Of a stretch of DNA of 64,000 nucleotides, positions 1 to 21,583 are shown one piece after another; position 1 is the stretch's first letter; each line of letters opens with the position of its first letter. Under the pieces are notes generated by a model, which did not search any database, had not been told where the DNA came from, and was given only the letters and a program-made list of their open reading frames with translations. This DNA comes from an uncultured Planctomycetales bacterium (lineage in GTDB: Bacteria; Omnitrophota; Gorgyraeia; Gygaellales; Profunditerraquicolaceae): the NCBI GenBank assembly GCA_964467905.1, contig CAYXSY010000002.1, positions 13,545 through 77,544 on the forward strand. Reading direction: 5' to 3'. The position numbers and the translations under genes were made by a program.

Positions 1-102
1 TACCCTAAAGCCTTTCTTCAAAAGATAGGTTTTTACTTTTTCTTTTAAATCAAATCCGGCATGATCTGAACCTATGCATAAATCTTTTTTTCCGTATTTC
101 AT
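1..102 (-). CDS. rpiB: ribose-5-phosphate isomerase B, first 34 codons only (gene runs off left edge)
   Basis: Reverse translation from ATG at 102-100 gives MKYGKKDLCIGSDHAGFDLKEKVKTYLLKKGFRV, which contains the RpiB/LacAB GSDHAGF N-terminal motif. The start overlaps the upstream stop by 1 nt (TGATG). Confidence 0.7.
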   Translation of the reverse strand, partial: MKYGKKDLCIGSDHAGFDLKEKVKTYLLKKGFRV

Positions 103-1220
103 CAGATTAACTCCGCTATTTTTTCTATGGCTTCCTTTATTGTTGCCAGTGTTTTAGCGTAGAACTCCGAGGGCCTGCCTATGGGGTCCTCGATATCCAT
201 ATTATTATCATCTATTTTATTGCCTGCAGAAAAATCTTTAGAGACTGACATTATATCACGGTTTCTAACCGGGTTAGCAAATTCTTTTAGTAAAAACACC
301 CTGCTCTTTATTTCAGGCGCCAGCTGTATTATCCTGTCTTCATGCACCTTCTCCATAACCAATATTAAATCCGACTTTCTTATCAAGGCCTCATTAAGGC
401 CTTTTGAGCGATGGGCCAACACATCTATACCTTCTCTTTTGAGAATATCTACCGTCTCAGCACTTGCCCCCATACCGCTAGACATCATGGTCCCGGCTGA
501 TTCTACTTCAACATCAAACCTTTTCTTCTCTTTGAGTTTCTTCTCCAGTAAAGCCTTAGCCATTACCGAACGGCAGGAATTACCAGTACATACGAAAAGA
601 ACAACTTTCTTATTAGCTACGCTTAATATGTCATCTTTTTTTATCGCACCCTCTCTTAAAACCTGTGTCTTGCCGCTGGTGACATCTACAACCGAAGATT
701 CAATGCCTAGACTTGCAGGTCCTGCGTCAATAGCAAAATCAACTAATCCATCCATATCCCTTATCGCCTCCGGGAAGTCGGCTGGAGCAGGTTTACCTGA
801 TACATTAGAAGAAGGGCAGGCTATCGGGACTTGTGCCAAAGCAACAACCCTAAGGGCAATCTCATTATCAGGCATACGCATACCTATGGTTTTCCCCAAT
901 CTTGAATTAAATACTATGGTTAAAGGCCCGGGCCAAAACTTATCTATCAGCTTATATGCGCAAACCGGTATATCACTGGCTAAGCCATTGACGCTCTCTT
1001 TTCTGTCTATAAGCAGAGAAAATGGTTTATCCTGCGGGCGCTTCTTGATTTCATATAACCTTTTTGCTGCACTTTTATCCGCCATGTTGGCTGCTATCCC
1101 ATAAACTGTCTCCGTAGGTATTATAACCAATCCCCCCTTGGCCAAGATATCAGCTGCCTCCTTAAGACACTTGTCATCAGGGAAAATAGGATCTAATTTA
1201 ACTACTTTGGTCTTACTCAT
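102..1220 (-). CDS. L-threonylcarbamoyladenylate synthase (TsaC/YrdC/Sua5-type) domain fused to a low-molecular-weight protein phosphatase domain
   Basis: The N-terminal half has the YrdC motif (GGLVIIPTETVYGIAAN ... KKRPQDKPFSLLI). The C-terminal half has the CX5R P-loop VLFVCTGNSCRSVMA and an IEDPIG general-acid region typical of LMW-PTP/YwlE. Confidence 0.8.
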   Translation of the reverse strand: MSKTKVVKLDPIFPDDKCLKEAADILAKGGLVIIPTETVYGIAANMADKSAAKRLYEIKKRPQDKPFSLLIDRKESVNGLASDIPVCAYKLIDKFWPGPLTIVFNSRLGKTIGMRMPDNEIALRVVALAQVPIACPSSNVSGKPAPADFPEAIRDMDGLVDFAIDAGPASLGIESSVVDVTSGKTQVLREGAIKKDDILSVANKKVVLFVCTGNSCRSVMAKALLEKKLKEKKRFDVEVESAGTMMSSGMGASAETVDILKREGIDVLAHRSKGLNEALIRKSDLILVMEKVHEDRIIQLAPEIKSRVFLLKEFANPVRNRDIMSVSKDFSAGNKIDDNNMDIEDPIGRPSEFYAKTLATIKEAIEKIAELI

Positions 1221-1699
1221 GCCTTAATTCTTGTCTTCTTTATTTTTTCGCGCATAGATTTCTTATAGCTCAGGAGTTTAGAAGTAATTGCCTTATCTGA
1301 TACAGCAAGTATCTCTAAAGCAAACAAAGCTGCATTCTTTGCCCCAGCCTTGCCGATAGCCATAGAGGCAACCGGTATACCCGAAGGCATCTGGACAGTA
1401 GATAATAACGAATCCATGCCTTTTAAACTGCTTGTTTCTATCGGGATCCCGATAACCGGCAGCACAGTATGAGCCGCAATAACACCTGCCAAAGCAGCTG
1501 ATCCTCCGGCAGCGGCAATAAATACCCTTACCCCCCTGTTATTAGCAGTCTCCACATATTTAGCAAGTTCTTTGGGTGTGCGATGGGCAGATAAAACTTT
1601 AACCTCAAAGGCTGCCTTAAACTCTTTCAACAAATCAATCCCGCAGCGCACAGTTTCTAAATCAGAATCACTACCCATGATAATGCTGATCTTGTTCAT
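1217..1699 (-). CDS. purE: N5-carboxyaminoimidazole ribonucleotide mutase
   Basis: MNKISIIMGSDSDL...SAHRTP...AGGSAALAGV are PurE signatures. I prefer ATG at 1699, which is preceded by AAAGGGAGGGG, over the GTG at 1726 used in the ORF track. Confidence 0.9.
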   Translation of the reverse strand: MNKISIIMGSDSDLETVRCGIDLLKEFKAAFEVKVLSAHRTPKELAKYVETANNRGVRVFIAAAGGSAALAGVIAAHTVLPVIGIPIETSSLKGMDSLLSTVQMPSGIPVASMAIGKAGAKNAALFALEILAVSDKAITSKLLSYKKSMREKIKKTRIKA

Positions 1700-1718
1700 A
1701 GCCCCTCCCTTTAAAACC

Positions 1719-1739
1719 CTAAACACTAAACCCTAAATC
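1719..1739. repeat. three tandem heptamers CTAAACA/CTAAACC/CTAAATC abutting a GC palindrome
   Basis: Read directly from the sequence. It lies immediately 5' of the palindrome at 1740-1759. Confidence 0.8.
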
Positions 1740-1759
1740 CCTGCCTACCGGCAGGCAGG
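1740..1759. repeat. copy A of 20-bp GC palindrome CCTGCCTaCCGGcAGGCAGG
   Basis: Near-identical to the perfect palindrome at 7200-7219 and to the partial copy at 21568-21583. Confidence 0.85.
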
Positions 1760-1843
1760 CTAAACAAATCTAAAACTCAAAATCCAAATGCTCAAAACTA
1801 AATAATTTTATAGTTTTGTGTTTAAAATTTTGAGTTTGTTTAG

Positions 1844-1890
1844 AATTTAGGATTTTGCTGCTTGTTAAACAAGCAGCAAATTTAGGATTT
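1844..1890. repeat. 23-bp perfect palindrome TGCTGCTTGTTAAACAAGCAGCA flanked by a perfect 12-bp direct repeat AATTTAGGATTT
   Basis: The direct repeat is at 1844-1855 and 1879-1890 and the palindrome at 1856-1878. It sits just downstream of the purD stop on the minus strand. Confidence 0.85.
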
Positions 1891-1899
1891 ATCATTATA

Positions 1900-3180
1900 T
1901 TACAGCGCTTTATAACCAATATCTTTTCTATAATGCATTCCCTCGAAACTTATCTTCCTTACCGCTTCATAAGTCTTATCTATAGCTTCTTTAATGGTAT
2001 CGCCTAAACCGGTGACACCCAAGACTCTCCCGCCATTAGTAACTATATCCCACTTACCGCCCTGTGTAACCATCTTAGTGCCGGCATGAAATACTATAAT
2101 ATCATGCATCTTCTCTACATCTTCGAGGCCGCTTATTAATTTACCTTTTGTATAATCTCCCGGATAACCTGCGGATGAACAAACTACGCAAACGCAAGGC
2201 CGCTTGTCCCATTCCAAAGCGCTGAAACGCGATAATTTTCCCTCGGCGACAGCCAACATCAACTCAATAAGATCAGTCCTTAGTCTCGGCAGAATCGCTT
2301 CTGTTTCGGGATCGCCAAAACGCACGTTAAACTCTAAGACTTTAGGCCCATCTTTTGTAATCATAATCCCAGCATATAAGATACCTTTATATTCTATCCC
2401 CTCTTTCAACAAACCTGCAATAATTCTATGCGCAACTGTCTTTAGGATCTGTTCGTATAATTTATCGGTTACTACCGGCGCAGGAGAATATGCACCCATC
2501 CCCCCGGTATTAGGCCCCTCGTCATTATCAAAAATGCGTTTGTGATCCTGCGATGAAACCAAAGGCACAACATGCCTGGAATCAGTAAGAAATAAGAGTG
2601 ACGCCTCTTGACCTTGGAGGCAATCTTCAATAATCAGGCGCTCTCCTGCCTTACCAAAAGATTTATGCAGCATAACCGAATCCAGCGCCTGCATAGCTTC
2701 TTTAATAGTGGCAGCGACAAAAACGCCTTTGCCCTGCGCTAAACCATCGGCCTTAATTACACAGGGCGCACCCTTTACGGAAATATATTTCTTGGCTTCA
2801 TCTAAATCAGAAAATACCCTAAAATCTGCAGTGGGCACGCCATAGCGGACCATCATCTGTTTGGCAAAAATCTTGCTTGCCTCCAGGTTAGCGGCTTTTT
2901 TATTGGGGCCGAATATTTTTAGCTTATGGCGTGAGAATTCATCAACAATACCTGCAGCTAATGGTGCCTCGGGCCCGACTACCGTCAGGTCTATTTTTTC
3001 TTTTCTGGCAAAATCCAATAACGAAACAATGTCATCTGCTTTTATATCAAGACACTCGGCATGCCGGGAAATCCCCGGATTCCCCGGTGCGCAAAATATT
3101 TTCTCTGCCAAAGGAGACTGCGCGATCTTCCATACCAACGCATGTTCTCTACCGCCTGAACCAATAACTAATATACGCAT
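1900..3180 (-). CDS. purD: phosphoribosylamine-glycine ligase
   Basis: MRILVIGSGGREHAL..., an ATP-grasp core and EFNVRFGDPE are all PurD signatures. Confidence 0.95.
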   Translation of the reverse strand: MRILVIGSGGREHALVWKIAQSPLAEKIFCAPGNPGISRHAECLDIKADDIVSLLDFARKEKIDLTVVGPEAPLAAGIVDEFSRHKLKIFGPNKKAANLEASKIFAKQMMVRYGVPTADFRVFSDLDEAKKYISVKGAPCVIKADGLAQGKGVFVAATIKEAMQALDSVMLHKSFGKAGERLIIEDCLQGQEASLLFLTDSRHVVPLVSSQDHKRIFDNDEGPNTGGMGAYSPAPVVTDKLYEQILKTVAHRIIAGLLKEGIEYKGILYAGIMITKDGPKVLEFNVRFGDPETEAILPRLRTDLIELMLAVAEGKLSRFSALEWDKRPCVCVVCSSAGYPGDYTKGKLISGLEDVEKMHDIIVFHAGTKMVTQGGKWDIVTNGGRVLGVTGLGDTIKEAIDKTYEAVRKISFEGMHYRKDIGYKAL

Positions 3181-3442
3181 ATATTTTTAAACTTAGTTTT
3201 ATAGAACTACCTTAAATGCCGCTGTCGGATTTTCGAGCGAGTGTCGATTTTAGCCAATGGAGCTTGAGCATTTTTGGGAATCCGAACACGCAAACTGTTC
3301 GGACGCCGAGGATGTTCGAGCCCGTTCTGGCGCAAACGCGCCGACGGGCGAGTTCCGCAGGCGCCGAAAATGCGAAAGAGCATTGGCGGCCCGAAGGGCA
3401 AAATCGACGCCGAGCGAGAAAACTGACAGTAGCATTTAGAAA

Positions 3443-4321
3443 CTATTTTGTTTCTTTCTTGTTCTCCATTTTTAACGGCAAAACCCCTGCCATCTCACTC
3501 ACAATATTAACCAACTGCTGGTCAGAAGGAACGACTATTTTAGCATTTGCGGCCAATGACTTCTCTACTGCCTCTATCCTGCGCAGGACCTGTGCATTGC
3601 CGACAAAATACTTCTCTGCCGCTTCGTTAACCAACCTTATTGCCTCTGCTTCACCTTCAGCCTCTAATATGCGCGCCTGTTTAACGCCCTCGGCTTTCTT
3701 AATCTCTGCCCGTTTTTGCCCGTCTGCGGCAGTTTCAGTTGCGGTAGCAAAATCAACAGCAGCGATTTTCTCATTTTCGGCCTTAACAACCTTATTCATC
3801 GTCTCCTGAACATCCTTAGGAGGATCAATTTCTTTCAATTCAGTCCTGACAATCTCAATCCCCCAGCTTTTGGTTTCTTCGCAAAGCGTCTTATGTAGCT
3901 CTTCATTAATCTTACCGCGCTCGCTGTTAGCGGATTTTAAAGTCAATGTACCGATTATGTTCCTTAGTGTGGTCCTGGCCAGGTTAACTATCTGCCACTG
4001 ATAATTATTAACATTATACTGAGAATTCTTTACGCTTTCCTCATCCGCTTTGACTTTAAAATAGACCTGGGCGTCAACCCTTGCATTCAAGTTATCGTTG
4101 GTAATAATCTCCTGCGGTTCGGCATCAACCATCTGTTCGGTTATATTAACCGAATATAAATGCTCAAATACCGGTATCACCCAATTAAAGCCGGGAGTGG
4201 CAAACCGGTTATATTTGCCTAATCGTTCAATCAAGCCTCTATGAGTCGGTCTGACAATTCTAATCCCGGCGATAAACACAATGACAGCAACAAATACCCC
4301 CCAATATAACAAATTAGCCAT
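3443..4321 (-). CDS. SPFH/band-7 (stomatin/HflC-like) membrane protein
   Basis: N-terminal TM segment, then an SPFH core (GLIERLGKYNRFATPGFNWVIP ... RTELKEIDPP) and an Ala/Glu-rich coiled-coil tail. Confidence 0.85.
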   Translation of the reverse strand: MANLLYWGVFVAVIVFIAGIRIVRPTHRGLIERLGKYNRFATPGFNWVIPVFEHLYSVNITEQMVDAEPQEIITNDNLNARVDAQVYFKVKADEESVKNSQYNVNNYQWQIVNLARTTLRNIIGTLTLKSANSERGKINEELHKTLCEETKSWGIEIVRTELKEIDPPKDVQETMNKVVKAENEKIAAVDFATATETAADGQKRAEIKKAEGVKQARILEAEGEAEAIRLVNEAAEKYFVGNAQVLRRIEAVEKSLAANAKIVVPSDQQLVNIVSEMAGVLPLKMENKKETK

Positions 4322-4341
4322 CTCTTGCCTCCTTCTCTGTT

Positions 4342-5376
4342 CTAACTGATCTCAACTAAACCTCTGCCCTTAACCGCTTCTCCTATTATCCAACCCTTAA
4401 GCTTAAAACGCATCAGGTATTTTATCATCTTAGCTGCAGAATCTTTTCTTACAACCAGAACCAATCCTACACCCATATTAAAAGTATGATACATTTCTTT
4501 ATCGCTAATACTGCCCTCATCCTGAATAATCCGGAATATCCTTGGCACAGGCCAGCTGGATTTATCAATTCTTACATTTACCGCTACAGGCAAAATGCGT
4601 GCTATCTTATCATAGAATGCTCCGCCGGTGATATGAGCTATACCAGTAACCCCCAACCCGCCTGAACCGAGCGTAGTCGAGGGATAACCCGTAACCCGTA
4701 ATAAAGACAAAACGGGTTTGACATAAATCCTTGTCGGCTTAAGCAATTCAGCGCAGTAGAGCTTTATCTTCTTATCCGAAAGGGCTTTTCTTACTAAGGA
4801 ATAACCGTTAGAATGTGCTCCGTTTGATTCAAGACCTATTAATACATCGCCTGGTTTGATTCGGGAACCATCAATAATGTTATTTCTTTCAACTGCTCCC
4901 ACACAAAAACCGGCAATATCATACTCTCCTTTACCATACATGCCGGGCATCTGCGCGGTTTCTCCTCCAATCAAGGAACAGCCGGAATCCAGGCATCCGG
5001 TATTAATACCCCTGACAATATCCAACAGGATATTAGTGCTTAAATTACTGTGAGCAATATAATCAAGGAAGAATAAAGGTTCGGCGCCGGTACACAAAAT
5101 ATCATTCACATTCATCGCTACCGCATCGATACCTACGGTATCATGCTTATTACATAGAGCGGCGATTTTAAGCTTTGTCCCTACTCCATCCGAAGATGAT
5201 ACTAATACCGGATTCTTATATTTGGTCTTATCCAGCGCAAAAAAACTTCCGAATCCGCCGATATCTTTTAAAACCTCAGTGCGGAATGACTTCCTTACTA
5301 AAGACTTTATATTCTTCTTAAAAGCATCTGCTTTATTTATATCTACCCCTGAACTTTTATAAGTTAGGCCTTTCAT
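4342..5376 (-). CDS. purM: phosphoribosylformylglycinamidine cyclo-ligase (AIR synthetase)
   Basis: LTYKSSGVDI..., SSDGVGTKLKIA and DYIAHS match PurM throughout. Confidence 0.95.
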   Translation of the reverse strand: MKGLTYKSSGVDINKADAFKKNIKSLVRKSFRTEVLKDIGGFGSFFALDKTKYKNPVLVSSSDGVGTKLKIAALCNKHDTVGIDAVAMNVNDILCTGAEPLFFLDYIAHSNLSTNILLDIVRGINTGCLDSGCSLIGGETAQMPGMYGKGEYDIAGFCVGAVERNNIIDGSRIKPGDVLIGLESNGAHSNGYSLVRKALSDKKIKLYCAELLKPTRIYVKPVLSLLRVTGYPSTTLGSGGLGVTGIAHITGGAFYDKIARILPVAVNVRIDKSSWPVPRIFRIIQDEGSISDKEMYHTFNMGVGLVLVVRKDSAAKMIKYLMRFKLKGWIIGEAVKGRGLVEIS

Positions 5377-5389
5377 AAAAAGATGCCTC

Positions 5390-6790
5390 CTAATCTTGTT
5401 CTTTACCAGTCCAGCAGTATTTACACAAATTCTGCTCTGATAATCCTATAGCTTTAACCATATCGGATAATTTCTGGTATATCAATGTAGTCGCACCCAG
5501 ATCTTTAGTAATCCAATCTACCATTTTTCTATACTTAGCTGAATCTTCATCAAGATATTCGCTGATATCTTTTATCTCCTTGCCTTCTATTGCCTTTATT
5601 GCCCTTCTAGCTACCAACTCCTGCATAGTACGCGTTGAATAGTTAAACTTACAGGGAAACATAAGCGGAGGACAGGCAATCCTTAGGTGTATTTCCTTAG
5701 CCCCACAATCAACAAGTTTTTGAATGGTATAATTCTTCAACTGCGTACCCCTGACTATGGAATCGTCGCAAAAGACTATGCGCTTACCGTTGATAATATC
5801 GGCTATCGGTATTAACTTCAGCCGCGCGATTAAATCGCGCTTCTCCTGGGTAGCCGGAGTATAACTCCTGTCAAAACCAGGAGTATATTTTACTAACGGC
5901 CTGCGGAAAGGCACCCCGGATTCCATAGAATAGCCTATGGCATGTGCCGTACCGGAATCAGGTATACCCGAAACCATATCTGCCTTTATCTTATCACATT
6001 TTGCCAGGCACGCTCCGCAACGCTCTCTGGCCATTTCAACATTTAACCCTTCATAAGAAGAAGCAGGAAAACCTGTGTAAATCCATAAAAATGAACAAAT
6101 CTGATTACATTTCGAACCCTTAGTCTTCGACTTTGTCCCGTCTTTGTCTATAAGAACTATTTCTCCGGGCTGGATATATTTTTTTACTTTATAACCTAAA
6201 TTATAAAAAGCCGATGACTCAGTCGTAACTGCCCAAGCGCCTGACTTTTCTCCTACGGTAAGCGGAGAATAACCAAGCCTGTCTCTGGCGGCATAAATCC
6301 CGTCTTTAGTGAGCAGCAGCAAAGAGCAAGACCCTTCAATCTGAGAAAACATACTCTCAATACCATCGGCTATATCTTTGCCTCTGATAATCAACTTGGC
6401 AATTAATTCCGGCAAGTTAACCGTACCGTCGGTAACCTCGCTGAATGACTGCCCTTCTTTATAAAGCTTCTCGGCAAGCTCTTCTGCATTCTCGACGAAC
6501 CCGTTAACAACAATGGCAAAGGGGCCGAATTTAGAATGAATCAATATTGGCTGCTCGTCTTTTGCGCTGATTACCCCGATGCCGCATGATACGCGCATCT
6601 TCTGGTAATCTTCATGAAACTTTGCCTTAAACTGGCTGCCGCGGATATCATGTATCTTCCGTATAATTTCTCCCCCGGAAAGCACAGCCAAACCTGCAAA
6701 CTGCGTCCCAAGATGAGAGTGATAATCTGTGCCATAAAATAAATCTTCGCCAAAATTATTACGCGCAGCCACTGCAAATATTCCGCTCAT
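5390..6790 (-). CDS. purF: amidophosphoribosyltransferase homologue with a divergent glutaminase domain (Ser in place of the N-terminal Cys)
   Basis: The PRPP loop RIVFCDDSIVRGTQL and the C-terminal Cys cluster (CKYCWTG) are PurF-like. The N-terminus reads MSGIF instead of MCGI, and a strong GGGGGAGG Shine-Dalgarno supports this start. Confidence 0.85.
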   Translation of the reverse strand: MSGIFAVAARNNFGEDLFYGTDYHSHLGTQFAGLAVLSGGEIIRKIHDIRGSQFKAKFHEDYQKMRVSCGIGVISAKDEQPILIHSKFGPFAIVVNGFVENAEELAEKLYKEGQSFSEVTDGTVNLPELIAKLIIRGKDIADGIESMFSQIEGSCSLLLLTKDGIYAARDRLGYSPLTVGEKSGAWAVTTESSAFYNLGYKVKKYIQPGEIVLIDKDGTKSKTKGSKCNQICSFLWIYTGFPASSYEGLNVEMARERCGACLAKCDKIKADMVSGIPDSGTAHAIGYSMESGVPFRRPLVKYTPGFDRSYTPATQEKRDLIARLKLIPIADIINGKRIVFCDDSIVRGTQLKNYTIQKLVDCGAKEIHLRIACPPLMFPCKFNYSTRTMQELVARRAIKAIEGKEIKDISEYLDEDSAKYRKMVDWITKDLGATTLIYQKLSDMVKAIGLSEQNLCKYCWTGKEQD

Positions 6791-6827
6791 TTCTATCCTC
6801 CCCCAAGAAATTTATTAAAACATAAGG

Positions 6828-7646
6828 CTACAAATTCTTGCGCGCATACTCCACGCCGTTCTGAAATATCCTTAGCCCATCGCCTTGCGCTCTTTTAGCC
6901 AGAGATGTCCACTGCGGATTCTGGGTAAAATCAATGTGTCTTTCCGGATGCGGCATCAAACCAAGTATTCTGCCCGTATCATCGCAGATGCCCGCAATAT
7001 TTTCTACCGAACCATTAGGATTATCCGGATAGACGCTCAAACGGTTATCGCTACTGCAATAACAAAAAACAATCTGTCCGTTTTTCTTTAATCTTTCCAA
7101 AACAGATTTATCTTTTGTAATGAATTTGCCCTCTCCATGCGCCACCGGCAAATAAATAACTTGCGGCAAATTCCTCGTCCATACACAATTTTGATTTTTC
7201 CTGCCTGCCGGCAGGCAGGGATTTTTTGATTTTTGGTTTCTTAGATACACCCACCTATCTTCAAACTTTCCTGAATCATTTATGATAAGGCTGACATCCT
7301 GCCTGAATGAATCGTTACCGGGTAAAATTCCGCTCTTGACTAAAATCTGAAAGCCATTACATATGCCTATGATAAGCTTGGCATCAGCTATAAAATCCCT
7401 TAAAGAATCGCCCAGTTTATATCGCAATTCATTCGCAAAAATCCTGCCCGCACCCAAATCGTCACCATAGGTAAAACCACCCGGCAAAGCAAGTATTTGA
7501 TAAGACTTAAGCATATCTTTATCCGCAATGATTTTATTAATATGCACAAGCTCCGCAGCTGCCCCCGCCTTTTGAAAAGCAAAAGCGGTCTCTTTGTCGC
7601 AATTGGTTCCTGCGCTTCTTAATACACAAACCTTAGGCTTTTTCAT
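6828..7646 (-). CDS. purQ: phosphoribosylformylglycinamidine synthase, glutaminase subunit
   Basis: The triad context is present (GICNGFQIL nucleophile Cys, MPHPERH). It is roughly 40 aa longer than I remember typical PurQ to be, partly because of the insert at 7189-7234. Confidence 0.9.
   Translation of the reverse strand: MKKPKVCVLRSAGTNCDKETAFAFQKAGAAAELVHINKIIADKDMLKSYQILALPGGFTYGDDLGAGRIFANELRYKLGDSLRDFIADAKLIIGICNGFQILVKSGILPGNDSFRQDVSLIINDSGKFEDRWVYLRNQKSKNPCLPAGRKNQNCVWTRNLPQVIYLPVAHGEGKFITKDKSVLERLKKNGQIVFCYCSSDNRLSVYPDNPNGSVENIAGICDDTGRILGLMPHPERHIDFTQNPQWTSLAKRAQGDGLRIFQNGVEYARKNL
7200..7219. repeat. copy B of the GC palindrome, perfect: CCTGCCTGCCGGCAGGCAGG, inside purQ coding sequence
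   Basis: Perfect 20-bp palindrome flanked by the 11-bp direct repeat TTTTGATTTTT (7189-7199 and 7224-7234). It translates in frame as ...KSKNPCLPAGRKNQN... Confidence 0.9.
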
Positions 7647-8337
7647 AAAATTTCTTTATCGCCTCAACAACTTCTTCTGGTTTATCAACTATAACAAATA
7701 TATCTAAATCATCCCGACTTATATTACCGTCCTTTAGAACCTTACTCTTAAACCAACTAATCAAGCCCTTCCAGTATTCCTTGCCCAAAAGTACAACCGG
7801 AAATTTCGCAATACGTTCAGTCTGTATAAGGTTTATTGACTCAAAAAATTCATCCAGCGTACCGTATCCTCCCGGCATAATTACAAATGCTTTAGCGTAC
7901 TTTACAAAAGTAACCTTCCTGACAAAAAAATAATGAAAGTCAAGTAATATATCCACATATTTGTTTGCCTTTTGTTCATGCGGTATCTGTATATTAAGCC
8001 CTACTGACTTACCTTTTGCTCTTCTTGCCCCTTTATTAGCTGCTTCCATAAGCCCCGGTCCGCTTCCGGTTATAACCGCATAACCTTCCTTAGCCAATAA
8101 ATAAGCAGTTTTCTCCGTAAGCTTATAATACCTGCTGCCGGGTTTTGTGCGGCTTGAACCGAATATAGAAACAGCATCACCCAAATCCGATAAAACCTCA
8201 AAGGCCTCAACAAATTCCGACATAATCCTGAATACCCTCCAGGGATCTTCATTTGTAAAGTCATCTTTCGGGATTATTTCGGTTTTCAGGTATTTTTTCA
8301 CCCCGCCCTTCCTTTCAGCATTATTATCACCAATCAT
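7633..8337 (-). CDS. LOG family / TIGR00730-type nucleotide 5'-monophosphate nucleosidase (lysine decarboxylase-like)
   Basis: Has the GSGPGLMEAANKGA and PGGYGTLDEFFE motifs. The start is uncertain: either ATG at 8337, or a GTG near 8298 with a better AGGAAGG Shine-Dalgarno. Confidence 0.8.
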   Translation of the reverse strand: MIGDNNAERKGGVKKYLKTEIIPKDDFTNEDPWRVFRIMSEFVEAFEVLSDLGDAVSIFGSSRTKPGSRYYKLTEKTAYLLAKEGYAVITGSGPGLMEAANKGARRAKGKSVGLNIQIPHEQKANKYVDILLDFHYFFVRKVTFVKYAKAFVIMPGGYGTLDEFFESINLIQTERIAKFPVVLLGKEYWKGLISWFKSKVLKDGNISRDDLDIFVIVDKPEEVVEAIKKFYEKA

Positions 8338-8389
8338 CCAGGAAGGGCGGGGTTCATCCCCGAGCTTCCTTTCAGCATTATTATACTGC

Positions 8390-11353
8390 CTACCACCTCA
8401 ACGGCTTCTGCCATGCTTCTTTTAATTCACTAATGTCTGCACCAACGCAAAGTTTGCCGTCAAGCCCATACACCTTAAATTTACTGCTATTATTAACGCA
8501 ACCGATTAAACCAAATGGTATCCCGCGAAGCGTACGTTCAAATAATCTCTGATTTCTTTTCTCAACCTCAACAACGAATCTTGAATTTGACTCGGAAAAC
8601 AACATAAAATCATTTCTTAGGTTATGATTCTTGATTCTTGAATTTTGAATTTTATACGGGACTTCCGAGATAAACAAATCCGCACCAAGCCCACCGGAGA
8701 AACTCATCTCAGCCGCTGCTACGCCAAGCCCGCCATCAGAACAATCATGCATAGACCTGATTAATCCGGAATCCGTTGCCTTATTTAAGGCGTTAAAAAT
8801 ATTCTTTGCATATTTAGGATATACTTTCGGAACAGAGTTACCAGTACAGGAATAGAGATCATAATAATGCGAACCGCCCATCTCATCATAGGTACAGCCG
8901 ACCGTATATATTAAATTCCCCGGCTCTTTAAGATACATAGACACGCATTTACGCACATCTTTCATTACGGCAATTGCTGAAATTAATAATGTCCCCGGGA
9001 TAGAAATCGACTTACCTTTAACGGTAAACTCATTGTATAGGCTGTCCTTACCCGATATAAAAGGCACGCCTAATGCCTTCGCCGTATCATAACATCCGTA
9101 AGAAGCACGCACTAAAGAACCTAGCCTGTCCGGCTTATCGGGATTGCCCCAACAAAAGTTATCCAATATAGCCACTTCATCCAAAGAGCATCCTGATGCT
9201 ACAATCTGCCTTAGCGCTTCATCAATGCAGGAAGCAGCCATCCAATAAGGGTCTATCAGGCCGTAACGAAAATTTATTCCGCAGGAAAGTGCAATACCTT
9301 TCCAAGAGCCAGGAAGCGGGCGGCTGATGCTGGCATCAGACGGGCCATCGTTACAGGCTCCGGCAAGCGGCTTTAAAACCGAAGCTCCTTGAACCTCATG
9401 GTCATACTGGCGAATAATCCATTCTTTAGAACAGATATCATAATGAGAAAGCAGCCGCATAAGATCTTTTGTATTATCTTTAAGACATTTTATATCCGGC
9501 TCTTTGTGGCGGCTCATTACAAAAACTGCCTTTTTCTCAATCTGCGGAATGCCCTGATGCAAGAATTTCATATCTAAATCACAAATTAAGCTTGAATCAT
9601 AATAAAGCTTAAGCCTTTTTGTTGCGGTAAACTCTCCTATTGCCGTAGCCTCAACCCCTTCAGAATCAAAGATATCTTTTAACTCCGCAAATTTATCTTT
9701 AGGCACAGAAAGCACCATTCTCTCCTGTGATTCCGAAATCCAAATTTCCATATAAGAAAGCCCCGAATATTTAAGCGGAACTCTCTCCAGGTGGACTTCA
9801 ACCCCCAAATCTTCTCCCATCTCACCTACGGCGCTTGAAAGCCCGCCCGCGCCGCAATCAGTTATAGCGCTATATAGATTCTTATCCCTAGCCTGCAGTA
9901 TAGCATCGGTCATCTTCTTCTCTTGGATAGGATTGCCTATCTGCACGGCCCCCGATGAGATAGTTTCTGATTCATGGGTCAGCTCTCCTGAAGAAAAAGT
10001 TGCCCCATGTATACCGTCTCTGCCGGTTAACCCTCCTACCACAACCACATAATCACCTGTCCTAGGATGCTTAAAAGATTTATCTTTGGGCATGATACCA
10101 ACGGTACCGCAATAGACTAAAGGATTACCCACAAATCTTTCGTGAAATAAAACAGCTCCGTTGACAGTAGGAATACCCATTTTATTTCCGTAATCGCGCA
10201 CACCTGAAACCACACCCTTCATCACACGTTTAGGATGTAAGGTGCCCGCGGGAAGCCTACTAAAGGGATACTCCGGAGAAGCAAAACAAAATACATCGGT
10301 GTTAAGAATCGGCTTGGCCCCGAGCCCGGTTCCAAGCGGATCTCTTATAACTCCCCCGACACCGGTATTGGCCCCGCCGAACGGCTCAAGCGCAGAAGGA
10401 TGATTGTGGGTTTCTACCTTAAAACAAATGTTATGTTTGTCATCAAAGCGTATTACTCCGGAATTATCTTTAAAAACGGACACACACCACGGCTTATTCA
10501 GCTCTTTGGTAACTTTCATTATGGTGGATTTTAATAAATTATCTATCCTTTTAGTTTTGGTTTTTGGATTTTGGGTTTTGGATTTGTTTCGGATTTCGGA
10601 TTTCGGATTTCGGATTTGTTCGCGATATCTTATCTTGCCCCTAAATGTCTTATGATAACAATGCTCGCTCCACGTCTGGGCGATAGTTTCTAATTCGCAA
10701 TCCGTGGGATTACGCTTAAGTGCTTTAAAATACCGCTTTATCTGACGCATTTCTTCCAGATTAAGGAAAAGCTGTCCCTGCTTACTAATCTTTTTTAATT
10801 TATCATCCGAACTGCCGAGCAAATCCACTGTAACCAGGTTAAATTTATAACCTGGATCCTGCACAGGATGAATTAAGCGGGCTGAATCTTGCGGCCTGAC
10901 GATATGCTGGATTAACTTATTATAAAGCAGCTTCTCTGAAATAGTTTTTAATTGATGCTCATTCAATCTGCCATGGATAACGTATTTTTTCGCGGTCTTG
11001 ACCGAAGATACGCCTTCTATGCCTAAATCACTTATTGCCTTTAAAGTCGAGGCTTCAACTGGATCCATCACTCCCGGGTTATAGGCAATTTCAATAATAT
11101 GTTCAGTAGACTTCTTTGCTAAACTAGAGAACTGTTTATTTATAGAATAATCCTGTGATATTTTATCGGTGAGTATTTCGCTGCAGATCTTATCGGCTTG
11201 CTCTTGAGAAATGCTGCCCTCTATAACATAGACCTGTATAAATTCAACGCCGCGGACAGAACCTATCCCCAGGTCAAATATATCTTTCTTGACTCCGGAC
11301 CCTACGGCGTCAAAAATACCTTTTTTATCTTTAACTTCTATGCGATAAAGCAT
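8390..11353 (-). CDS. purL: phosphoribosylformylglycinamidine synthase subunit PurL with an N-terminal PurS-like domain (PurS-PurL fusion)
   Basis: The N-terminus MLYRIEVKDKKGIFDAVGSGVKKDIFDLGI resembles PurS. The rest is PurL (SEHCYHKTF, VETHNHPSALEPFGGA, DCGAGGLSSAVGEM). It contains two low-complexity inserts encoded by heptamer repeats. Confidence 0.9.
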   Translation of the reverse strand: MLYRIEVKDKKGIFDAVGSGVKKDIFDLGIGSVRGVEFIQVYVIEGSISQEQADKICSEILTDKISQDYSINKQFSSLAKKSTEHIIEIAYNPGVMDPVEASTLKAISDLGIEGVSSVKTAKKYVIHGRLNEHQLKTISEKLLYNKLIQHIVRPQDSARLIHPVQDPGYKFNLVTVDLLGSSDDKLKKISKQGQLFLNLEEMRQIKRYFKALKRNPTDCELETIAQTWSEHCYHKTFRGKIRYREQIRNPKSEIRNKSKTQNPKTKTKRIDNLLKSTIMKVTKELNKPWCVSVFKDNSGVIRFDDKHNICFKVETHNHPSALEPFGGANTGVGGVIRDPLGTGLGAKPILNTDVFCFASPEYPFSRLPAGTLHPKRVMKGVVSGVRDYGNKMGIPTVNGAVLFHERFVGNPLVYCGTVGIMPKDKSFKHPRTGDYVVVVGGLTGRDGIHGATFSSGELTHESETISSGAVQIGNPIQEKKMTDAILQARDKNLYSAITDCGAGGLSSAVGEMGEDLGVEVHLERVPLKYSGLSYMEIWISESQERMVLSVPKDKFAELKDIFDSEGVEATAIGEFTATKRLKLYYDSSLICDLDMKFLHQGIPQIEKKAVFVMSRHKEPDIKCLKDNTKDLMRLLSHYDICSKEWIIRQYDHEVQGASVLKPLAGACNDGPSDASISRPLPGSWKGIALSCGINFRYGLIDPYWMAASCIDEALRQIVASGCSLDEVAILDNFCWGNPDKPDRLGSLVRASYGCYDTAKALGVPFISGKDSLYNEFTVKGKSISIPGTLLISAIAVMKDVRKCVSMYLKEPGNLIYTVGCTYDEMGGSHYYDLYSCTGNSVPKVYPKYAKNIFNALNKATDSGLIRSMHDCSDGGLGVAAAEMSFSGGLGADLFISEVPYKIQNSRIKNHNLRNDFMLFSESNSRFVVEVEKRNQRLFERTLRGIPFGLIGCVNNSSKFKVYGLDGKLCVGADISELKEAWQKPLRW
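8625..8652. repeat. heptamer tandem repeat TGATTCT x2 + TGAATTT x2 inside purL
   Basis: Read directly from the sequence. It encodes part of ...KIQNSRIKNHNLRN... on the minus strand. Confidence 0.85.
10553..10620. repeat. heptamer microsatellite inside purL: CGGATTT x4 (10590-10617) preceded by degenerate TTTTGGN units
   Basis: Read directly from the sequence. The minus strand reads AAATCCG x4 and translates as QIRNPKSEIRNKSKTQNPKTKTK. Confidence 0.9.
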
Positions 11354-11384
11354 TTTATATTATTGAGAATTAGGGAAGGAAATA

Positions 11385-12677
11385 CTAAAGCCCGAGCCGC
11401 TTAAAGATTTTTCCTATGTTACGTAAATAATAATCAAGATCAAAAATGCTGTCTAGCTCTTTCTTGGTAAAATACCTATTCGCTTCTTTATCGGCAAGCA
11501 AGTTATCCTTAAAGTCTGTCCCGTCTTTCCATGTCTTCATTGCACATCGCTGCACAACATCATAAGCCTGCGGACGCCTCAATCCTTTATACATAAGAGA
11601 CAATAAAACCCTTTGAGAGAATATCAATCCGTGCGTGCGTGCAAGATTAGCCAGCATATTATCCGGATAAACTTTCAAGCCTTCTATAACTTCAATCATT
11701 TTGTTAAGCATGTAATCCAGTGCTAGAGTCGAATCGGGTATAATTACGCGCTCAACCGAAGAATGCGATATATCTCTCTCGTGCCAAAGTGCCACATTTT
11801 CCATAGCAGCAACTGCGTTTGAACGCAAAAGCCGGCTCAAGCCGCATATACGTTCGCATATCACAGGATTTCTTTTGTGCGGCATGGCCGATGAACCTTT
11901 CTGTCCCTTACCAAAAGGCTCCTCTGCCTCCAAAACTTCGGTTCTCTGTAAATGTCTTATCTCAGTAGCAAATTTTTCTAATGACGAACCGACAATGGCA
12001 ATCCGGCACATCAAAACAGCATAAATATCTCTCTGTATTATCTGGGTAGAGATTTTTGCAGGCTGCAATTTAAGTTTTCTGCACACATACTCCTCAACCC
12101 AGGGATCAATATTAGAATACGTACCCACTGCCCCTGATATTTTACCGGTTGAGATTTCTTTTTTAGCTAACTGAAGCCGGTTAAGGTTGCGCCTGGTCTC
12201 GTCATACCAAAGAGCAAGTTTTAACCCGAAAGTAGTCGGCTCTGCATGTACGCCATGGGTACGGCCTATACAAACCATATCCTTATATTTTGTCGCCTTC
12301 TTGGCTAAAGCCTTAAGAAGTTTTTCTGCGTCATCGATAAGGATGTCACATGCTTCAACAAGCTGGACACCTAAAGTAGTATCCAAGACATCTGATGAAG
12401 TAAGGCCCATATGCAAATATTTAGCATCCTGACCTATATAGCCGGAAACATTCTGCACAAATGCTACCACATCATGCTGGGTTTTTTCTTCTATTTTCTT
12501 AATCTCTGATAAATTAAACTTTGCTTTTTTCTTTATGCGCTGAACCGCTGAAGAAGGGATAACGCCTTTTTTGGCAAGAGCTTCTAAACTAAGTATCTCT
12601 ATGGACAGCATGGTTTTAAATTTAAAATCTTCCTGCCATATATAATTCATCTTGGGTAGGCTGTATCTTTCAATCAT
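11385..12677 (-). CDS. purB: adenylosuccinate lyase
   Basis: Fumarate-lyase family signature GSSAMPHKRNP and PurB-type length and termini. Confidence 0.95.
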   Translation of the reverse strand: MIERYSLPKMNYIWQEDFKFKTMLSIEILSLEALAKKGVIPSSAVQRIKKKAKFNLSEIKKIEEKTQHDVVAFVQNVSGYIGQDAKYLHMGLTSSDVLDTTLGVQLVEACDILIDDAEKLLKALAKKATKYKDMVCIGRTHGVHAEPTTFGLKLALWYDETRRNLNRLQLAKKEISTGKISGAVGTYSNIDPWVEEYVCRKLKLQPAKISTQIIQRDIYAVLMCRIAIVGSSLEKFATEIRHLQRTEVLEAEEPFGKGQKGSSAMPHKRNPVICERICGLSRLLRSNAVAAMENVALWHERDISHSSVERVIIPDSTLALDYMLNKMIEVIEGLKVYPDNMLANLARTHGLIFSQRVLLSLMYKGLRRPQAYDVVQRCAMKTWKDGTDFKDNLLADKEANRYFTKKELDSIFDLDYYLRNIGKIFKRLGL

Positions 12678-12773
12678 AGTATCCTCCGAAGTAAATAATT
12701 ATAGCATAACTGCTTTTAATAAGAAAGAAAAAACTCTTTATCATAAAAGGTTACACGCTGGACTTTTTAGCAC

Positions 12774-12805
12774 AAAAAAACTCGGCTCTTTTATAAAAAG
12801 CCGAG
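12774..12805 (-). terminator. rho-independent terminator downstream of tRNA-fMet
   Basis: The minus strand reads CTCGGCTttttataaaagAGCCGAG followed by TTTTTTT. Confidence 0.7.
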
Positions 12806-12858
12806 TAAGGCTCAACCTCGGCCTCGTGGTGAGCGAGGCCAAAGGCCGAGTCGAACCA

Positions 12859-13198
12859 TTGCGGGGGCCCGATTTGAACGGACGGCCTTCAGGTTATGCT
12901 TACTACTGCAGCTTTCGCTGCCCCAGAGTTATTTTGAATAGGACTTAAAAAGTTAACCCTGGGTTTGTAGTCTGGACTATACCTTGATCCTTACAGGACC
13001 CCTGCCATCTAGTCTCTACACCTTCTCCAACAGAACATCGAAGATTGGCTCGGTATTACTTCCGGTTTTATCCGAGAGCTTCACCGAATTTGACAGGTTA
13101 TCCTCCAGCCGTTGCCGGCTAGGGAGCCCATTATCCCGCCCTTGCACGCAAGGACGGGACATTGAGCCTGACGAGCTACCAGACTGCTCCACCCCGCG
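12859..13198 (-). tRNA. initiator tRNA-Met (anticodon CAU) interrupted in the anticodon loop by a group I intron; no encoded CCA
   Basis: The 5' exon is cgcggggtggagcagtctggtagctcgtcaggct (13198-13165). The 3' exon is cataacctgaaggccgtccgttcaaatcgggcccccgcaa (12898-12859). Joined, they give a 74-nt cloverleaf almost identical to E. coli tRNA-fMet as I recall it. It has the C1xA72 mismatch and A11:U24 pair typical of bacterial initiators. Confidence 0.9.
12899..13164 (-). ncRNA. group I (IC3-like) intron within tRNA-fMet
   Basis: 266 nt. The splice sites were chosen so that the 5' exon ends in U and the intron ends in G. It contains GTCAAATTCGG (13094-13084) and GAAGGTGTAGAGACTAGA (13025-13008), which match the tRNA-intron core strings I recall from the Azoarcus/cyanobacterial introns. 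A 10-bp P2-like hairpin cccgtccttg/caagggcggg lies near the 5' end. Confidence 0.85.
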
Positions 13199-13326
13199 AT
13201 ATTAACTATCATAGTGGAATTCCAAACCTACCGAGGAACTCCATCTTGCGAAATTAAACAAAAAACTTATTTCCAGATATAGCAAATATTATATCAGAAT
13301 ATAGAAATACTACAAACAATATTTTA

Positions 13327-13605
13327 TTACCTTTTCTTCTCTTCAGGAACTATCTTTACCGGGACCTCTCCTTTACGCACGACACCAAGCCTTTCCCTGG
13401 CAATCTTCTCCTGATAAAGCGGATCCGTCTCCACCCGTTTAATCTCCTGATCTAAAAGAGCATTCTCTATATGAAGCTGCTTAATCTTGGTTTCCAGCTC
13501 CCGGTTCTTATCTTTTAACTCCTGCAGCTTAGTATAGCCGGGCAAAAAAATAACCAATAGAAACAAAGCAACGCCAAAAATCCAGAACGTTTTTTTTATA
13601 ACCAT
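13327..13605 (-). CDS. ftsB: cell division protein FtsB/DivIC (septum formation initiator)
   Basis: Single N-terminal TM segment, a leucine-zipper coiled coil, and a DPLYQEKIARERLGVVRKGE tail. It lies directly downstream of eno. Confidence 0.75.
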   Translation of the reverse strand: MVIKKTFWIFGVALFLLVIFLPGYTKLQELKDKNRELETKIKQLHIENALLDQEIKRVETDPLYQEKIARERLGVVRKGEVPVKIVPEEKKR

Positions 13606-14892
<1,287 letters not shown>

Positions 14893-14999
14893 TTAAAATT
14901 TTATCACAACTCCGAACATAGTCAAGTAATAAAACCGTTTTGCCAAATATAATTGACTTTTTGTTAGGATGTGCTATCCTCTTTTCTATAGGAGGAACT

Positions 15000-17900: not shown

Positions 17901-18029
17901 TTGAAGGAAACCGAAGAGCTCTTTAAAAAACATGACGCATTGTTAGAAACCCTCGCCAAGAAGCTACTTGAGAAAGAAGAACTAAACTATGACGAGATCG
18001 CAACAATATTTAAAGAATGTTCAAAGTAA
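15000..18029 (+). CDS. tandem-duplicated FtsH-like protease: TM anchor followed by two complete AAA+ / M41 zinc-protease units in one polypeptide
   Basis: Unit 1 has [24 protein letters not shown] and HEAGH. Unit 2 has [24 protein letters not shown] and HEAGH. ATG at 15000 is preceded by AGGAGG, so I prefer it to the track's TTG at 14940. Confidence 0.85.
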
Positions 18030-18850
18030 AGATCTCCTTTATTATATTATTCTTACTTAGCCTAATATCCGCGGGATGCCAACCTAAACCTCAATCGGTT
18101 AAACATACCTACTCTAAAGAAACAGTAGCCAATGATATCATCGAATTATGCAGGCGCGAATATAAAAGGGAGCCTAAAGTCTGGCTCATCAATGATACGG
18201 TCTGGGTATATATCCCGTTTGAAAGCCTTATAGATAAGAATATGGAGCCGACCAAGGAGGTCAGCGATACTTTAAATGATATAGTCCTGGCTTCCAGCAG
18301 GGTTGTGCTAAGCATGAATCCGCGCCCGAAATTCCTGGTAATCGCTGCTTCTGATATCAAAGAATACGGCATAGACTACCTGACCATAAGTTATATACCC
18401 GACCTTATAAAATACCGGCTCGATGCTATCTCAAGGGACGAATTCTTACGCAGGCACATAACCAGAATCAAAGAAAGCTTTGATGCCATGTCGGATGCTG
18501 AAGGCAAGCACCTTGAAAAGACAGATATAAAGTTGGAGGATTTTATGTCTGAACAGATGGCATCACGCATAAACTTAAAATTTGCAGAAGATCCGCTACT
18601 GAAGGACCATTTTAAAGTAAATAAGGTATCCGTGAGGTTTAAAGATGAGGCGTTTGAAATTACTGTAGACATACAACAACTTACTCAACCGAAAGCCCCT
18701 GTAGATATCCAAGAGGAAATCGCTAAAGTTGTCTCAAGCGTAGTGCGGGCTTACAATTTCAGTAATTTTGCGCTTGCCCAGATTGAAAATGTTGCCACCG
18801 GAGAAAAAACTGTACTTAGCAGCCGCAGGCTAAGAGAATCCGCTAATTAA
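18017..18850 (+). CDS. lipoprotein of unknown function
   Basis: Signal peptide with lipobox LISAGC. It overlaps the end of the FtsH-like gene, so the two are probably co-transcribed. Confidence 0.6.
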   Translation: MFKVKISFIILFLLSLISAGCQPKPQSVKHTYSKETVANDIIELCRREYKREPKVWLINDTVWVYIPFESLIDKNMEPTKEVSDTLNDIVLASSRVVLSMNPRPKFLVIAASDIKEYGIDYLTISYIPDLIKYRLDAISRDEFLRRHITRIKESFDAMSDAEGKHLEKTDIKLEDFMSEQMASRINLKFAEDPLLKDHFKVNKVSVRFKDEAFEITVDIQQLTQPKAPVDIQEEIAKVVSSVVRAYNFSNFALAQIENVATGEKTVLSSRRLRESAN

Positions 18851-19460
18851 TCTTAACCTTCCTCCCCTTTATCTTGATTCTGCCATTAATAAACAGATTG
18901 ATTGCCTGCGGATAAAGCCTGTGTTCTATCTTATGGATTCTTCTCTCCAGAGAAGCTAGAGTATCGTTATTTCTGACCTGGATACCTTCCTGCAAAATAA
19001 TCGGACCATGATCCATTTTCTCATCTACAAAATGCACGGTTACCCCTGTAACCTTGATGCCATAATCAAAAGCATCCTTTATGGCATGTGCGCCTTTAAA
19101 TGAAGGTAATAATGCAGGGTGAATATTGATAATTTTATTTCTATATGCGTTAATTAATTTATGCCCGAGCATGCGCATGAAACCAGCCATAACGACCAAA
19201 CCAATCTTATTCGCCTTTAAACAAGCTATAATAGCATCCTCAAAACTGTCCCTATCAGAAAAATCATCTCTCCTAAGCAAAACGTAATTTATCTTTAACT
19301 TTTTAGCTTTTTTCAATACGCCTGCGAGCGGCTGGTCGCAAACTAAAATCTTAAGACAAGCCTTAATCCTGCCCGCTTTTACCTGCTTTGCTATAGCTTC
19401 AAAATTAGAGCCCCTTCCAGAGGCAAAAACAGCAATATTAATCATTTTGTGTTGTCCCAT
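18843..19460 (-). CDS. purN: phosphoribosylglycinamide formyltransferase
   Basis: IAVFASGRGSNFEAI and NIHPALLPSFKG are PurN motifs. Confidence 0.9.
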   Translation of the reverse strand: MGQHKMINIAVFASGRGSNFEAIAKQVKAGRIKACLKILVCDQPLAGVLKKAKKLKINYVLLRRDDFSDRDSFEDAIIACLKANKIGLVVMAGFMRMLGHKLINAYRNKIINIHPALLPSFKGAHAIKDAFDYGIKVTGVTVHFVDEKMDHGPIILQEGIQVRNNDTLASLERRIHKIEHRLYPQAINLFINGRIKIKGRKVKIN

Positions 19461-21488: not shown

Positions 21489-21567
21489 AATCTTAGTAAC
21501 TAGTAAGCTCGTAACTAGTAACTCGTAATTCTAAAAAATTCTCTATTTTCTAATTACTCGTTATCTA

Positions 21568-21583
21568 CCTGCCGGCAGGCAGG
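21568..21583. repeat. copy C (partial) of the GC palindrome, CCTGCCGGCAGGCAGG, in the rnfD-rnfE spacer
   Basis: Embedded in a longer imperfect inverted repeat: GTAACTAGTA (21511-21520) pairs with TACTAGTTAC (21597-21606), and ACTCG with CGAGT. GTAAC-type heptamer words lie at 21497-21530. Confidence 0.8.

Follow-up and report, generated by a model that had tools for sequence, protein, structure and literature searches.

A 20-nt palindrome in purQ of an Omnitrophota genome as a probable miniature hairpin-forming insertion element

Introduction

Our question was how a perfect 20-bp palindrome came to be read, in frame, inside a housekeeping gene. The gene is purQ (6828..7646, minus strand), which encodes the glutaminase subunit of FGAM synthase and lies in a 64,000-nt stretch of contig CAYXSY010000002.1 from an uncultured bacterium that GTDB places in Omnitrophota; this whole stretch is called the window below. 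The palindrome, CCTGCCTGCCGGCAGGCAGG (PAL from here on), occupies 7200-7219, and the 11-mer TTTTGATTTTT stands on either side of it, at 7189-7199 and again at 7224-7234. On the plus strand the site therefore reads caat TTTTGATTTTT CCTGCCTGCCGGCAGGCAGG gatt TTTTGATTTTT ggtttc. A preliminary description of this DNA had proposed that the palindrome is a dispersed element rather than a feature of purQ, that it was inserted together with its flanking repeats, and that it resembles the Rickettsia palindromic elements (RPEs). Its coordinates are confirmed, and so is the in-frame reading of the palindrome within a 272-aa open reading frame (ORF) on the minus strand. Our answer is that PAL is probably a miniature, non-autonomous, hairpin-forming insertion element, of which the purQ copy is tolerated in a protein loop.

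Results

The purQ insert and its boundaries

The 272-aa ORF was identified as PurQ from its match to the NCBIfam profile TIGR01737 (206.6 bits against a cutoff of 177.8) and from its structure model, and its nearest homologues carry the annotation Candidatus Omnitrophota. Within it the stretch that holds PAL is translated as ...YLRNQKSKNPCLPAGRKNQNCVW... and, with other end points, ...FEDRWVYLRNQKSKNPCLPAGRKNQNCVWTRNLP.... The closest PurQ (P0002, 265 aa, 92% identical) is without exactly 21 nt, or 7 aa, at the PAL point; in the protein alignment its loop reads NQKPKS-------KIQN against NQKSKNPCLPAGRKNQN in the window. The DNA of this relative (locus L001) runs AA CCAGAAA CCAAAAT CCAAAAT CCAAAAT TGT, an uninterrupted heptamer array (CCAAAAT x3). 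The window DNA runs AGAAACC AAAAATC AAAAAATC, then the 20-nt palindrome, then AAAAATC AAAAT TGT. The number of array units is equal in the two, and the 21st nucleotide comes from the unit immediately upstream of PAL, which has an extra A; the units adjoining PAL also differ from those of the relative (TCAAAAA vs CCAAAAT). Of the two parts into which PAL divides the array, the one upstream in the gene (7220..7241, minus strand; AGAAACC AAAAATC AAAAAATC, the last unit holding the extra A) encodes RNQKSKN, and the one downstream (7188..7199, minus strand; AAAAATC AAAAT) encodes KNQN. Contigs coding for P0002 and contigs coding for the window protein are both present in metagenome assembly GCA_020047475.1.

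Judged from this alignment, the purQ copy of PAL is a secondary insertion, as the preliminary description had supposed. The part played by the flanking repeats has to be revised, though: they are present, but since the 7-nt array exists without the palindrome and is continuous in the relative, they are array units, neither created nor carried by the insertion. A target-site duplication is thereby ruled out, and it is ruled out as well by the nested copies described below, which add exactly 20 nt. Searched for alone with at most one mismatch, TTTTGATTTTT has 14 matches in the window where 8.2 are expected, which is not significant; the 11-mer is meaningful only as part of the heptamer array.

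The occurrence of one identical short palindrome in unrelated assemblies could point to a technical origin, in assembly or in library preparation. The same 272-aa protein with identical DNA around PAL was, however, assembled independently in five samples or assemblies, so the purQ copy is not an assembly artefact. The DNA on either side of PAL aligns colinearly with the orthologue, the frame is kept across the insertion and PAL also stands in the genomes of cultured isolates. These facts refute an artefact for practical purposes, and we give it next to no weight.

A loop with repeated insertions in Omnitrophota PurQ

The loop that holds PAL was measured between the invariant motifs FEDRW and AHGEG in the 120 best PurQ homologues, where its length ranges from 32 to 57 aa. 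A short form of 32-34 aa (e.g. YLKSQKCVW) is found in 10 of the 120 and a loop of 36-38 aa in 4, while 89 have 39-41 aa with a heptamer array and 17 have 44-57 aa, made up of the array and an additional small insert; in this longest class a small palindrome lies within the array. At the DNA level the class with seven added residues corresponds to about four tandem heptamers, whose unit changes with the lineage (AAAATCC, AGTCCAC, CACCGGT, GAAACCA). As 7 is not divisible by 3, the reading of such an array passes through each of the three frames and gives peptides with a 7-aa period, such as SPQSTVHSPQ and KPETRNHKPE. The heptamer array is itself an insertion with respect to the short-form Omnitrophota PurQs and the Salmonella enzyme.

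PAL-derived peptides occur in 7 of the 120 homologues. In the preliminary description, the same peptide in orthologous PurQs of unrelated lineages had been named as a sign of ancestry rather than insertion; PurQs with PAL-derived peptides in this loop do exist among other Omnitrophota, but at the DNA level they point to independent insertions. Except for one 93%-identical pair, the nearest neighbours of the PAL-bearing PurQs are all PAL-free. Since the PAL-bearing proteins are not mutual closest relatives, at least six insertion events in the loop are indicated.

The coding copies also differ in detail. In the window (unit AAAAATC) PAL follows three units, has 1.7 units downstream, and adds PCLPAGR with an extra A in the upstream unit. 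Locus L204 (P0007, unit AAAAGTC) has two units upstream and 2.7 downstream, again with an extra A in the upstream unit, and its added peptide is PAYRQAG. An extra C at the junction goes with LPCRQAG in L205 (P0021, unit CTACGAG), and the decayed copy of L206 (P0016) has an extra A in the centre of the palindrome and reads CLPDRQA. In L209 (P0032, unit ACCAGCG) PAL is at a second, C-terminal PurQ site, with an extra T in one arm (PCLAGRQ), and in L126 it is in purM (unit GCGATTA), where it reads HACRQAG and the junction has an extra C. Each of these coding cases gains a net 21 nt, while array position, frame and the +1 change vary. This would be expected if a 20-nt element had been inserted independently each time and only those alleles with a restored frame had survived.

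One could also suppose that the ancestor of this PurQ clade already had the segment and that the relatives lost it by precise deletion. Direct repeats around a hairpin do favour deletion by slippage, and other lineages have the same palindrome in the same loop. Against this, the PAL-bearing proteins are scattered among PAL-free neighbours and their copies differ in array position, frame and compensating base. In addition, the equal number of units in the window and its relative means that they differ cleanly by 21 nt, rather than by the palindrome plus one unit. We consider this history highly improbable.

PAL is not the only palindrome in the PurQ loop. Two GTAG-tagged hairpins like repetitive extragenic palindromes (REPs) are found in L207 (3301-4152; VGRGLAPV...VGTGRDLS), a 26-nt palindrome CCCTTTACCTGC-AA-GCAGGTAAAGGG in L209, and further small palindromes in L208 and L210. 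The second hot spot in PurQ lies close to the C-terminus (HPRWT...GDG).

Distribution and insertion pattern of PAL

When up to three mismatches are allowed, the window holds three copies of the 20-mer, at 7200 (no mismatch), 1740 (one) and 21564 (two), where shuffled sequences lead us to expect 0.01. A scan for CCTGCCTRCCGGYAGGCAGG in one genome per species, 596 Gb in total, returned at least 120 loci, while by our calculation about 2 sites would be expected by chance. Among the matches listed, the hosts belong to at least ten phyla and include Omnitrophota, many lineages of the Patescibacteria or candidate phyla radiation (CPR), Bacteroidota, Planctomycetota, Nitrospirota and Chloroflexota, as well as Bdellovibrionales and gamma- and delta-proteobacterial metagenome-assembled genomes. 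Cultured Bacteroidota (Winogradskyella echinorum KCTC 22026, Olivibacter oleidegradans CCM 7765, Flagellimonas yonaguniensis) are also among the hosts. In IMG/VR, 48 stretches of viral contigs match PAL, some contigs having several copies, and four control palindromes, two matched in composition and two natural ones from the PurQ loop, gave 0 matches each. The idea that the palindrome is a dispersed element and not a feature of purQ is thus borne out in the window, in genomes and in viral contigs alike. No Rfam family covers PAL. On some viral contigs PAL or its CATGCCTACC subvariant is dense, with about 6 copies in 4.1 kb in L256 and 6 copies on the single 29.5-kb contig to which L238, L247 and L249 all belong.

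The flanks are unrelated between loci, and thus the unit is the 20-mer itself. Four clean cases of PAL nested within PAL were found, in which removing 20 nt restores the outer copy, split at C^CGG or CCG^G; degenerate nestings are present as well. PAL also stands at the centre of unrelated palindromes (L073, L088, L238/L247) and splits the units of short tandem arrays, mostly heptamers (L239, L241, L230, L217 and others), in both settings with no duplication. Short-period arrays accompany 9.9% of PAL sites vs 1.1% of control positions, across phyla, a figure that comes from a windowed test, a stricter periodicity threshold having proved too stringent. Roughly a third of the copies have one asymmetric change (CCGGTAGG), by which a site can be oriented. 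Of the 61 sites oriented this way, 45 have G and 13 have A at position -1, and at position +1 there are 36 with G, 20 with T and none with A; this differs from the complement pattern that a process with no polarity would leave (p = 2.5e-14).

These patterns bear on the suggestion that PAL reached purQ not by transposition but through gene conversion or short-homology recombination, the donor being another genomic copy in a similar heptamer array and the units on either side supplying the homology. There is something to recommend it, as all three window copies are in or beside heptamer arrays and the 1740 and purQ copies both have AAATC directly 5' of PAL. The altered units next to the purQ copy are what a conversion tract would give, and a unit, GCTACGA, shared by three genes of L205 suggests exchange among arrays. 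Conversion fails, however, to explain the exact 20-nt nestings, the insertions in unrelated palindromes and in tRNA-like sequences, and the polar flanks, with a purine before and G or T after (R^K). Nor does it account for an identical 20-mer across phyla and phages or for the separate +1 repair in each coding copy, and we regard it as unlikely.

With respect to genes, 54 PAL sites are between co-directional, 10 between convergent and 8 between divergent genes, and 44 are within ORFs of at least 110 aa. About 12-24% of sites are within long ORFs, several of them large (e.g. 714-721 aa), so that PAL is depleted from coding DNA yet not excluded from it. In a fuzzy search for diverged copies, matches that were only the CCTG repeat shifted in register by 4 nt predominated, and covariation was not readable.

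The idea that PAL acts as a tRNA 'intron' was considered and rejected. Three PAL-bearing tRNA-like sequences from genome contigs were examined; all are fragments, truncated or degenerate, and only L047 is called as a tRNA after removal of the 20 nt. In the tRNA-Met of a phage contig (L242, 2239-2330, IMG/VR), ARAGORN calls PAL as a long variable arm. The related L213 has the same junction and no callable tRNA.

Structure, reading frame and RNA folds

The structure of PurQ was modeled with AlphaFold (AF2) from 120 sequences, a model from 28 sequences having been set aside at a pLDDT of 58.7. The model has a mean pLDDT of 86.4 and a pTM of 0.89, and it matches the glutaminase domains of FGAM synthetases at a TM of 0.82, and also Thermotoga PurQ. 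Residues 131-137 are predicted as a strand and residues 138-154, which include the array and the palindrome, as coil, with pLDDT dropping to about 63 over residues 141-150. The insert thus maps to a coil of variable length, at which the Salmonella enzyme has gaps in the alignment. The PurQ alignment has no variation at the C96 and H233/E235 motifs, and the ORF is intact. Taken together, the range of loop lengths and the low-confidence coil support the view that the array and PAL lie in a tolerant loop, as the preliminary description had suspected.

Whichever of its six frames is read, PAL is free of stop codons, the three frames being identical on both strands, and so is the A-rich array when read in the sense orientation. 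TGA does occur on the T-rich strand of the array, and thus the array fits a gene in one orientation only. With both PAL and the sense array free of stops, purQ reads through and gains seven residues, PCLPAGR, which the 20 nt of PAL encode with one extra base.

In the purQ mRNA, PAL (7200..7219) is predicted to fold as a hairpin with an 8-bp stem and a CCGG loop (-15.4 kcal/mol), with A-rich flanks and without a U tract; the sequence after the hairpin on this sense strand is AAAAAUCAAAA, which does not give the pattern of an intrinsic terminator. On the antisense (plus) strand, 7198..7234 could form a 10-bp stem with a 4-nt loop and a TTTTTTGATT tail (-17 kcal/mol). By pattern match alone this is terminator-like, and it ranks second in 1-20000.

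Such folds raise the question of whether purQ retains the hairpin, alone or together with the array, as something useful, be it an antisense terminator, a site of mRNA stabilization or processing, a translational pause or a beneficial surface peptide. The antisense structure is strong and the mRNA hairpin stable. The other two window copies are intercistronic in pur and rnf operons, where REP-type RNA elements act, and many lineages have such sequences in the same PurQ, PurM and PurL loops. But the closest relative does without the hairpin, the loop occupants vary in sequence, length and frame with no conserved peptide, and the asymmetric variant has no orientation bias with respect to transcription. 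A selected function seems improbable to us. We treat both the mRNA hairpin and the antisense structure as by-products, and the insert in purQ is most likely a neutral passenger.

Other copies and heptamer arrays in the window

The second copy of PAL, CCTGCCTACCGGCAGGCAGG, is at 1740..1759 in the spacer between purD and purE, as the flanking genes are named from Pfam. Around it, at 1714..1804, Tandem Repeats Finder (TRF) reports AAACCCT x4 (1714-1742) and units of the CAAAACT type (1765-1804). Nearby, at 1845-1890, is an unrelated palindrome, TTGCTGCTTG-TTAAA-CAAGCAGCAA (1855-1879), with direct repeats AATTTAGGATTT at 1845-1856 and 1879-1890, an architecture that is the same as that of the purQ site. 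The third copy, TCTACCTGCCGGCAGGCAGG, is at 21564..21583 in the spacer that separates rnfD from the next rnf gene, and within it the 16-mer match at 21568-21583 is exact. An array of TAGTAAC x4.9 (21494..21528, TRF) is beside this copy, with an inverted partial copy of the array on the opposite side (21584-21610).

Heptamer arrays are also read in frame in other purine genes of the window. One in purL, with TTTCGGA/TTTTGGA units (10549..10620, minus strand), is read as IRNPKSEIRNKSKTQNPKTKTK, and L205 has an array at the same site. A second purL array (8625..8653, minus strand) is read as KIQNSRIKNHN, at a place where five other lineages have arrays. In purM, TTACGGG units and, between them, a different insert of about 28 nt (TCCCTCGACTACGCTCGGTTCAGGCGGG) occupy 4643..4703 on the minus strand and are read as LRVTGYPSTTLGSGGLGVTG; the 28-nt insert is common to the window and its close relative L001. 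The PurM loop (IYVKP to HITGG) is 24 aa in the short forms and 29-30 aa with arrays, and it is here that L126 has PAL. Both this loop and the two PurL sites have in-frame arrays in many lineages, each with units of its own. In L205 the purL, purQ and purM arrays are all built on GCTACGA, while other genomes use other units, which suggests concerted evolution or exchange among the arrays of one genome. In 490 kb of Omnitrophota DNA, made up of the window and purQ neighbourhoods, arrays of period 7, those of the purQ loop not included, number 47, and those of periods 6, 8 and 9 number 10, 25 and 26, although many of these arrays fall at the same few orthologous sites.

The neighbours of purQ are purL (with a PurS-like part at its N-terminus), a LOG-family gene, purF and purM. 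The LOG/TIGR00730-family (lysine-decarboxylase-like) gene at 7633-8337 (minus strand) sits between purL and purQ and overlaps the start of purQ by 14 nt, an arrangement that is kept in related Omnitrophota loci. Elsewhere in the window, a giant ORF of 4,919 aa (30703-45462, minus strand) has weak Pfam matches to SLOG cluster4 and a HAD-like domain near its C-terminus. A group I intron at 12959-13163 (minus strand; Rfam score 50.3 against a gathering threshold of 50) directly follows a 5' half resembling tRNA-fMet, CGCGGGGTGGAGCAGTCTGGTAGCTCGTCAGGCTCA (about 13160-13197), where ARAGORN calls no tRNA.

Discussion

An insertion element of this kind would add exactly 20 nt, with no target duplication, in a polar insertion between a purine and G or T. 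Its preferred landing sites would be single-stranded or slipped DNA, that is, the centres of palindromes, its own copies included, and short arrays, mostly of 7 nt. In the case of purQ, the Omnitrophota loop would already have held a heptamer array into which PAL landed. As an insertion of 20 nt shifts the frame, the survivors would be those rescued by a nearby +1 change, here the extra A in the adjacent unit, after which read-through could add PCLPAGR in a tolerant coil. We infer that PAL is actively mobile and may move as a single strand of DNA or RNA.

Several observations weigh against this explanation. The presence and absence of PAL between two proteins that are 92% identical is a change without direction, and precise loss is possible in any single case. 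No protein family recurs as a mobilizing gene beside the 168 PAL loci whose 2,336 ORFs were compared all against all by BLAST. A linked transposase was looked for among the recurrent families and rejected, these being phage structural genes, a ParB-like protein, an ABC ATPase and sensor kinases, as judged by sequence. The variant that preserves G.U pairing is not enriched on the sense strand (8 vs 11 between genes, 7 vs 2 inside ORFs), and in view of this absence of strand bias relative to transcription, an RNA-level role or an RNA intermediate is without direct support. Finally, the 64-kb window has three PAL copies only.

A more far-reaching reading, which we put forward as possible rather than probable, is that PAL could be a pan-bacterial 20-nt mobile element, among the smallest known. 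It would be carried between phyla, possibly by phages, and be inserted as a single strand at R^K sites that lie in hairpin loops or in slipped heptamer arrays, with the PurQ, PurM and PurL arrays as its landing pads or footprints. If this were true, loops of housekeeping proteins would have been remodelled across Omnitrophota and the CPR. Apart from this reading, the PAL family extends the very small mobile repeats, known only from Nostocaceae, to much of the bacterial tree, and it raises the question of which enzyme moves a 20-nt hairpin.

Some consequences are more practical. Omnitrophota enzymes have repeat-derived, lineage-specific peptides at fixed loops, and this bears on annotation, alignment and phylogeny; the repeats matter for annotation in particular because they yield spurious low-complexity 'hypothetical' peptides. 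Polymorphisms in the presence or absence of PAL may serve as strain markers. Taken alone, the purQ case is a tolerated 7-residue loop insert, and the PAL family is the more interesting subject. We found no paper with the PAL sequence, or with such palindromes in Omnitrophota or the CPR, in a body of literature that has few subscription journals.

Comparison with known systems

The small dispersed repeats SDR1 to SDR8 of Nostocaceae are reportedly 21-27 nt long and hairpin-forming, and are said to lie often within tandem heptameric repeats and to be nested in their own copies. We know of no transposase for them. The SDR work of Elhai et al. 2008 (Genome Res 18:1484) is cited in passages of PMC5861425, PMC4390886 and PMC3116915. 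In one of these passages the insertion point of SDR5 is given as between nucleotides 3 and 4 of HIP1 (PMC4390886), and in another SDR-like repeats are stated not to be found outside Nostocaceae (PMC5861425). Taken by description, the SDRs are the closest match to PAL. Both are very small, PAL with 20 nt being just under the SDR range, and both form hairpins and are dispersed. Both are often in heptamer arrays, which for PAL holds in the window purQ, L204, L205, L126, L189, L209 and many viral and genomic sites. Both are nested in their own copies, with four clean cases of exactly 20 nt for PAL, and like SDR5 in HIP1, PAL has a fixed insertion point in a palindrome, namely its own centre. They differ in that SDRs are reported only from Nostocaceae while PAL is in many phyla and on phage contigs, and in that coding loops hold PAL and its arrays in frame.

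REPs are palindromes of 20-40 bp, with intragenic GTAG/CGTC-tagged copies among them (Di Nocera et al. 2013, PMC3733652), and have been proposed to be miniature mobile DNA. Intragenic REPs are documented in bacteria including O. terrae, a PVC member, and Rickettsia, and some in-frame copies are thought to lie in linkers or loops (PMC3733652). PAL, with its 8-bp stem and 4-nt loop, falls within this range of stem-loops. As with REPs, most of its sites are outside genes, with neighbours that are largely co-directional or convergent; in the window, the two copies other than that in purQ are intercistronic. Unlike REPs, it has no unpaired GTAG/CGTC tag at its end, the bias in the 61 oriented sites being only at -1 (R) and +1 (K), and in the PAL family GTAG occurs only inside the loop of the T variant. 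No RAYT or other transposase was found beside the 168 PAL loci, and PAL is identical across phyla whereas REP sequences are specific to a species or genus.

With the heptameric repeats of Calothrix and Nostoc (short tandemly repeated repetitive sequences, STRR) and the general heptamer excess of bacteria, the arrays here share tandem 7-nt units that are species-specific and over-represented. This excess of heptamer simple sequence repeats is known, if poorly studied, and is described as intergenic (PMC4692102). Here, in contrast, the arrays are in frame at conserved PurQ, PurM and PurL loops and seem to act as landing sites for hairpin elements. Miniature inverted-repeat transposable elements combine terminal inverted repeats and a target duplication at a size of 70-300 bp, unlike PAL with its 20 nt and no duplication.

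There remains the comparison with RPEs that the preliminary description had drawn. Elements of the RPE-1 type are roughly 100-150 bp long and are known only from Rickettsia. RPEs have been described as REP-like elements placed in frame in Rickettsia ORFs (PMC3733652). The likeness holds as far as a palindromic repeat is read in frame within a housekeeping gene that is left intact, with the right fold in the model, and is tolerated there. It does not extend to the kind of element, as PAL is 20 nt (+1), is present in many phyla and needs a separate +1 change to keep the frame, a comparison that is made at the level of size and placement. PAL is SDR- and REP-like, and not RPE-like.

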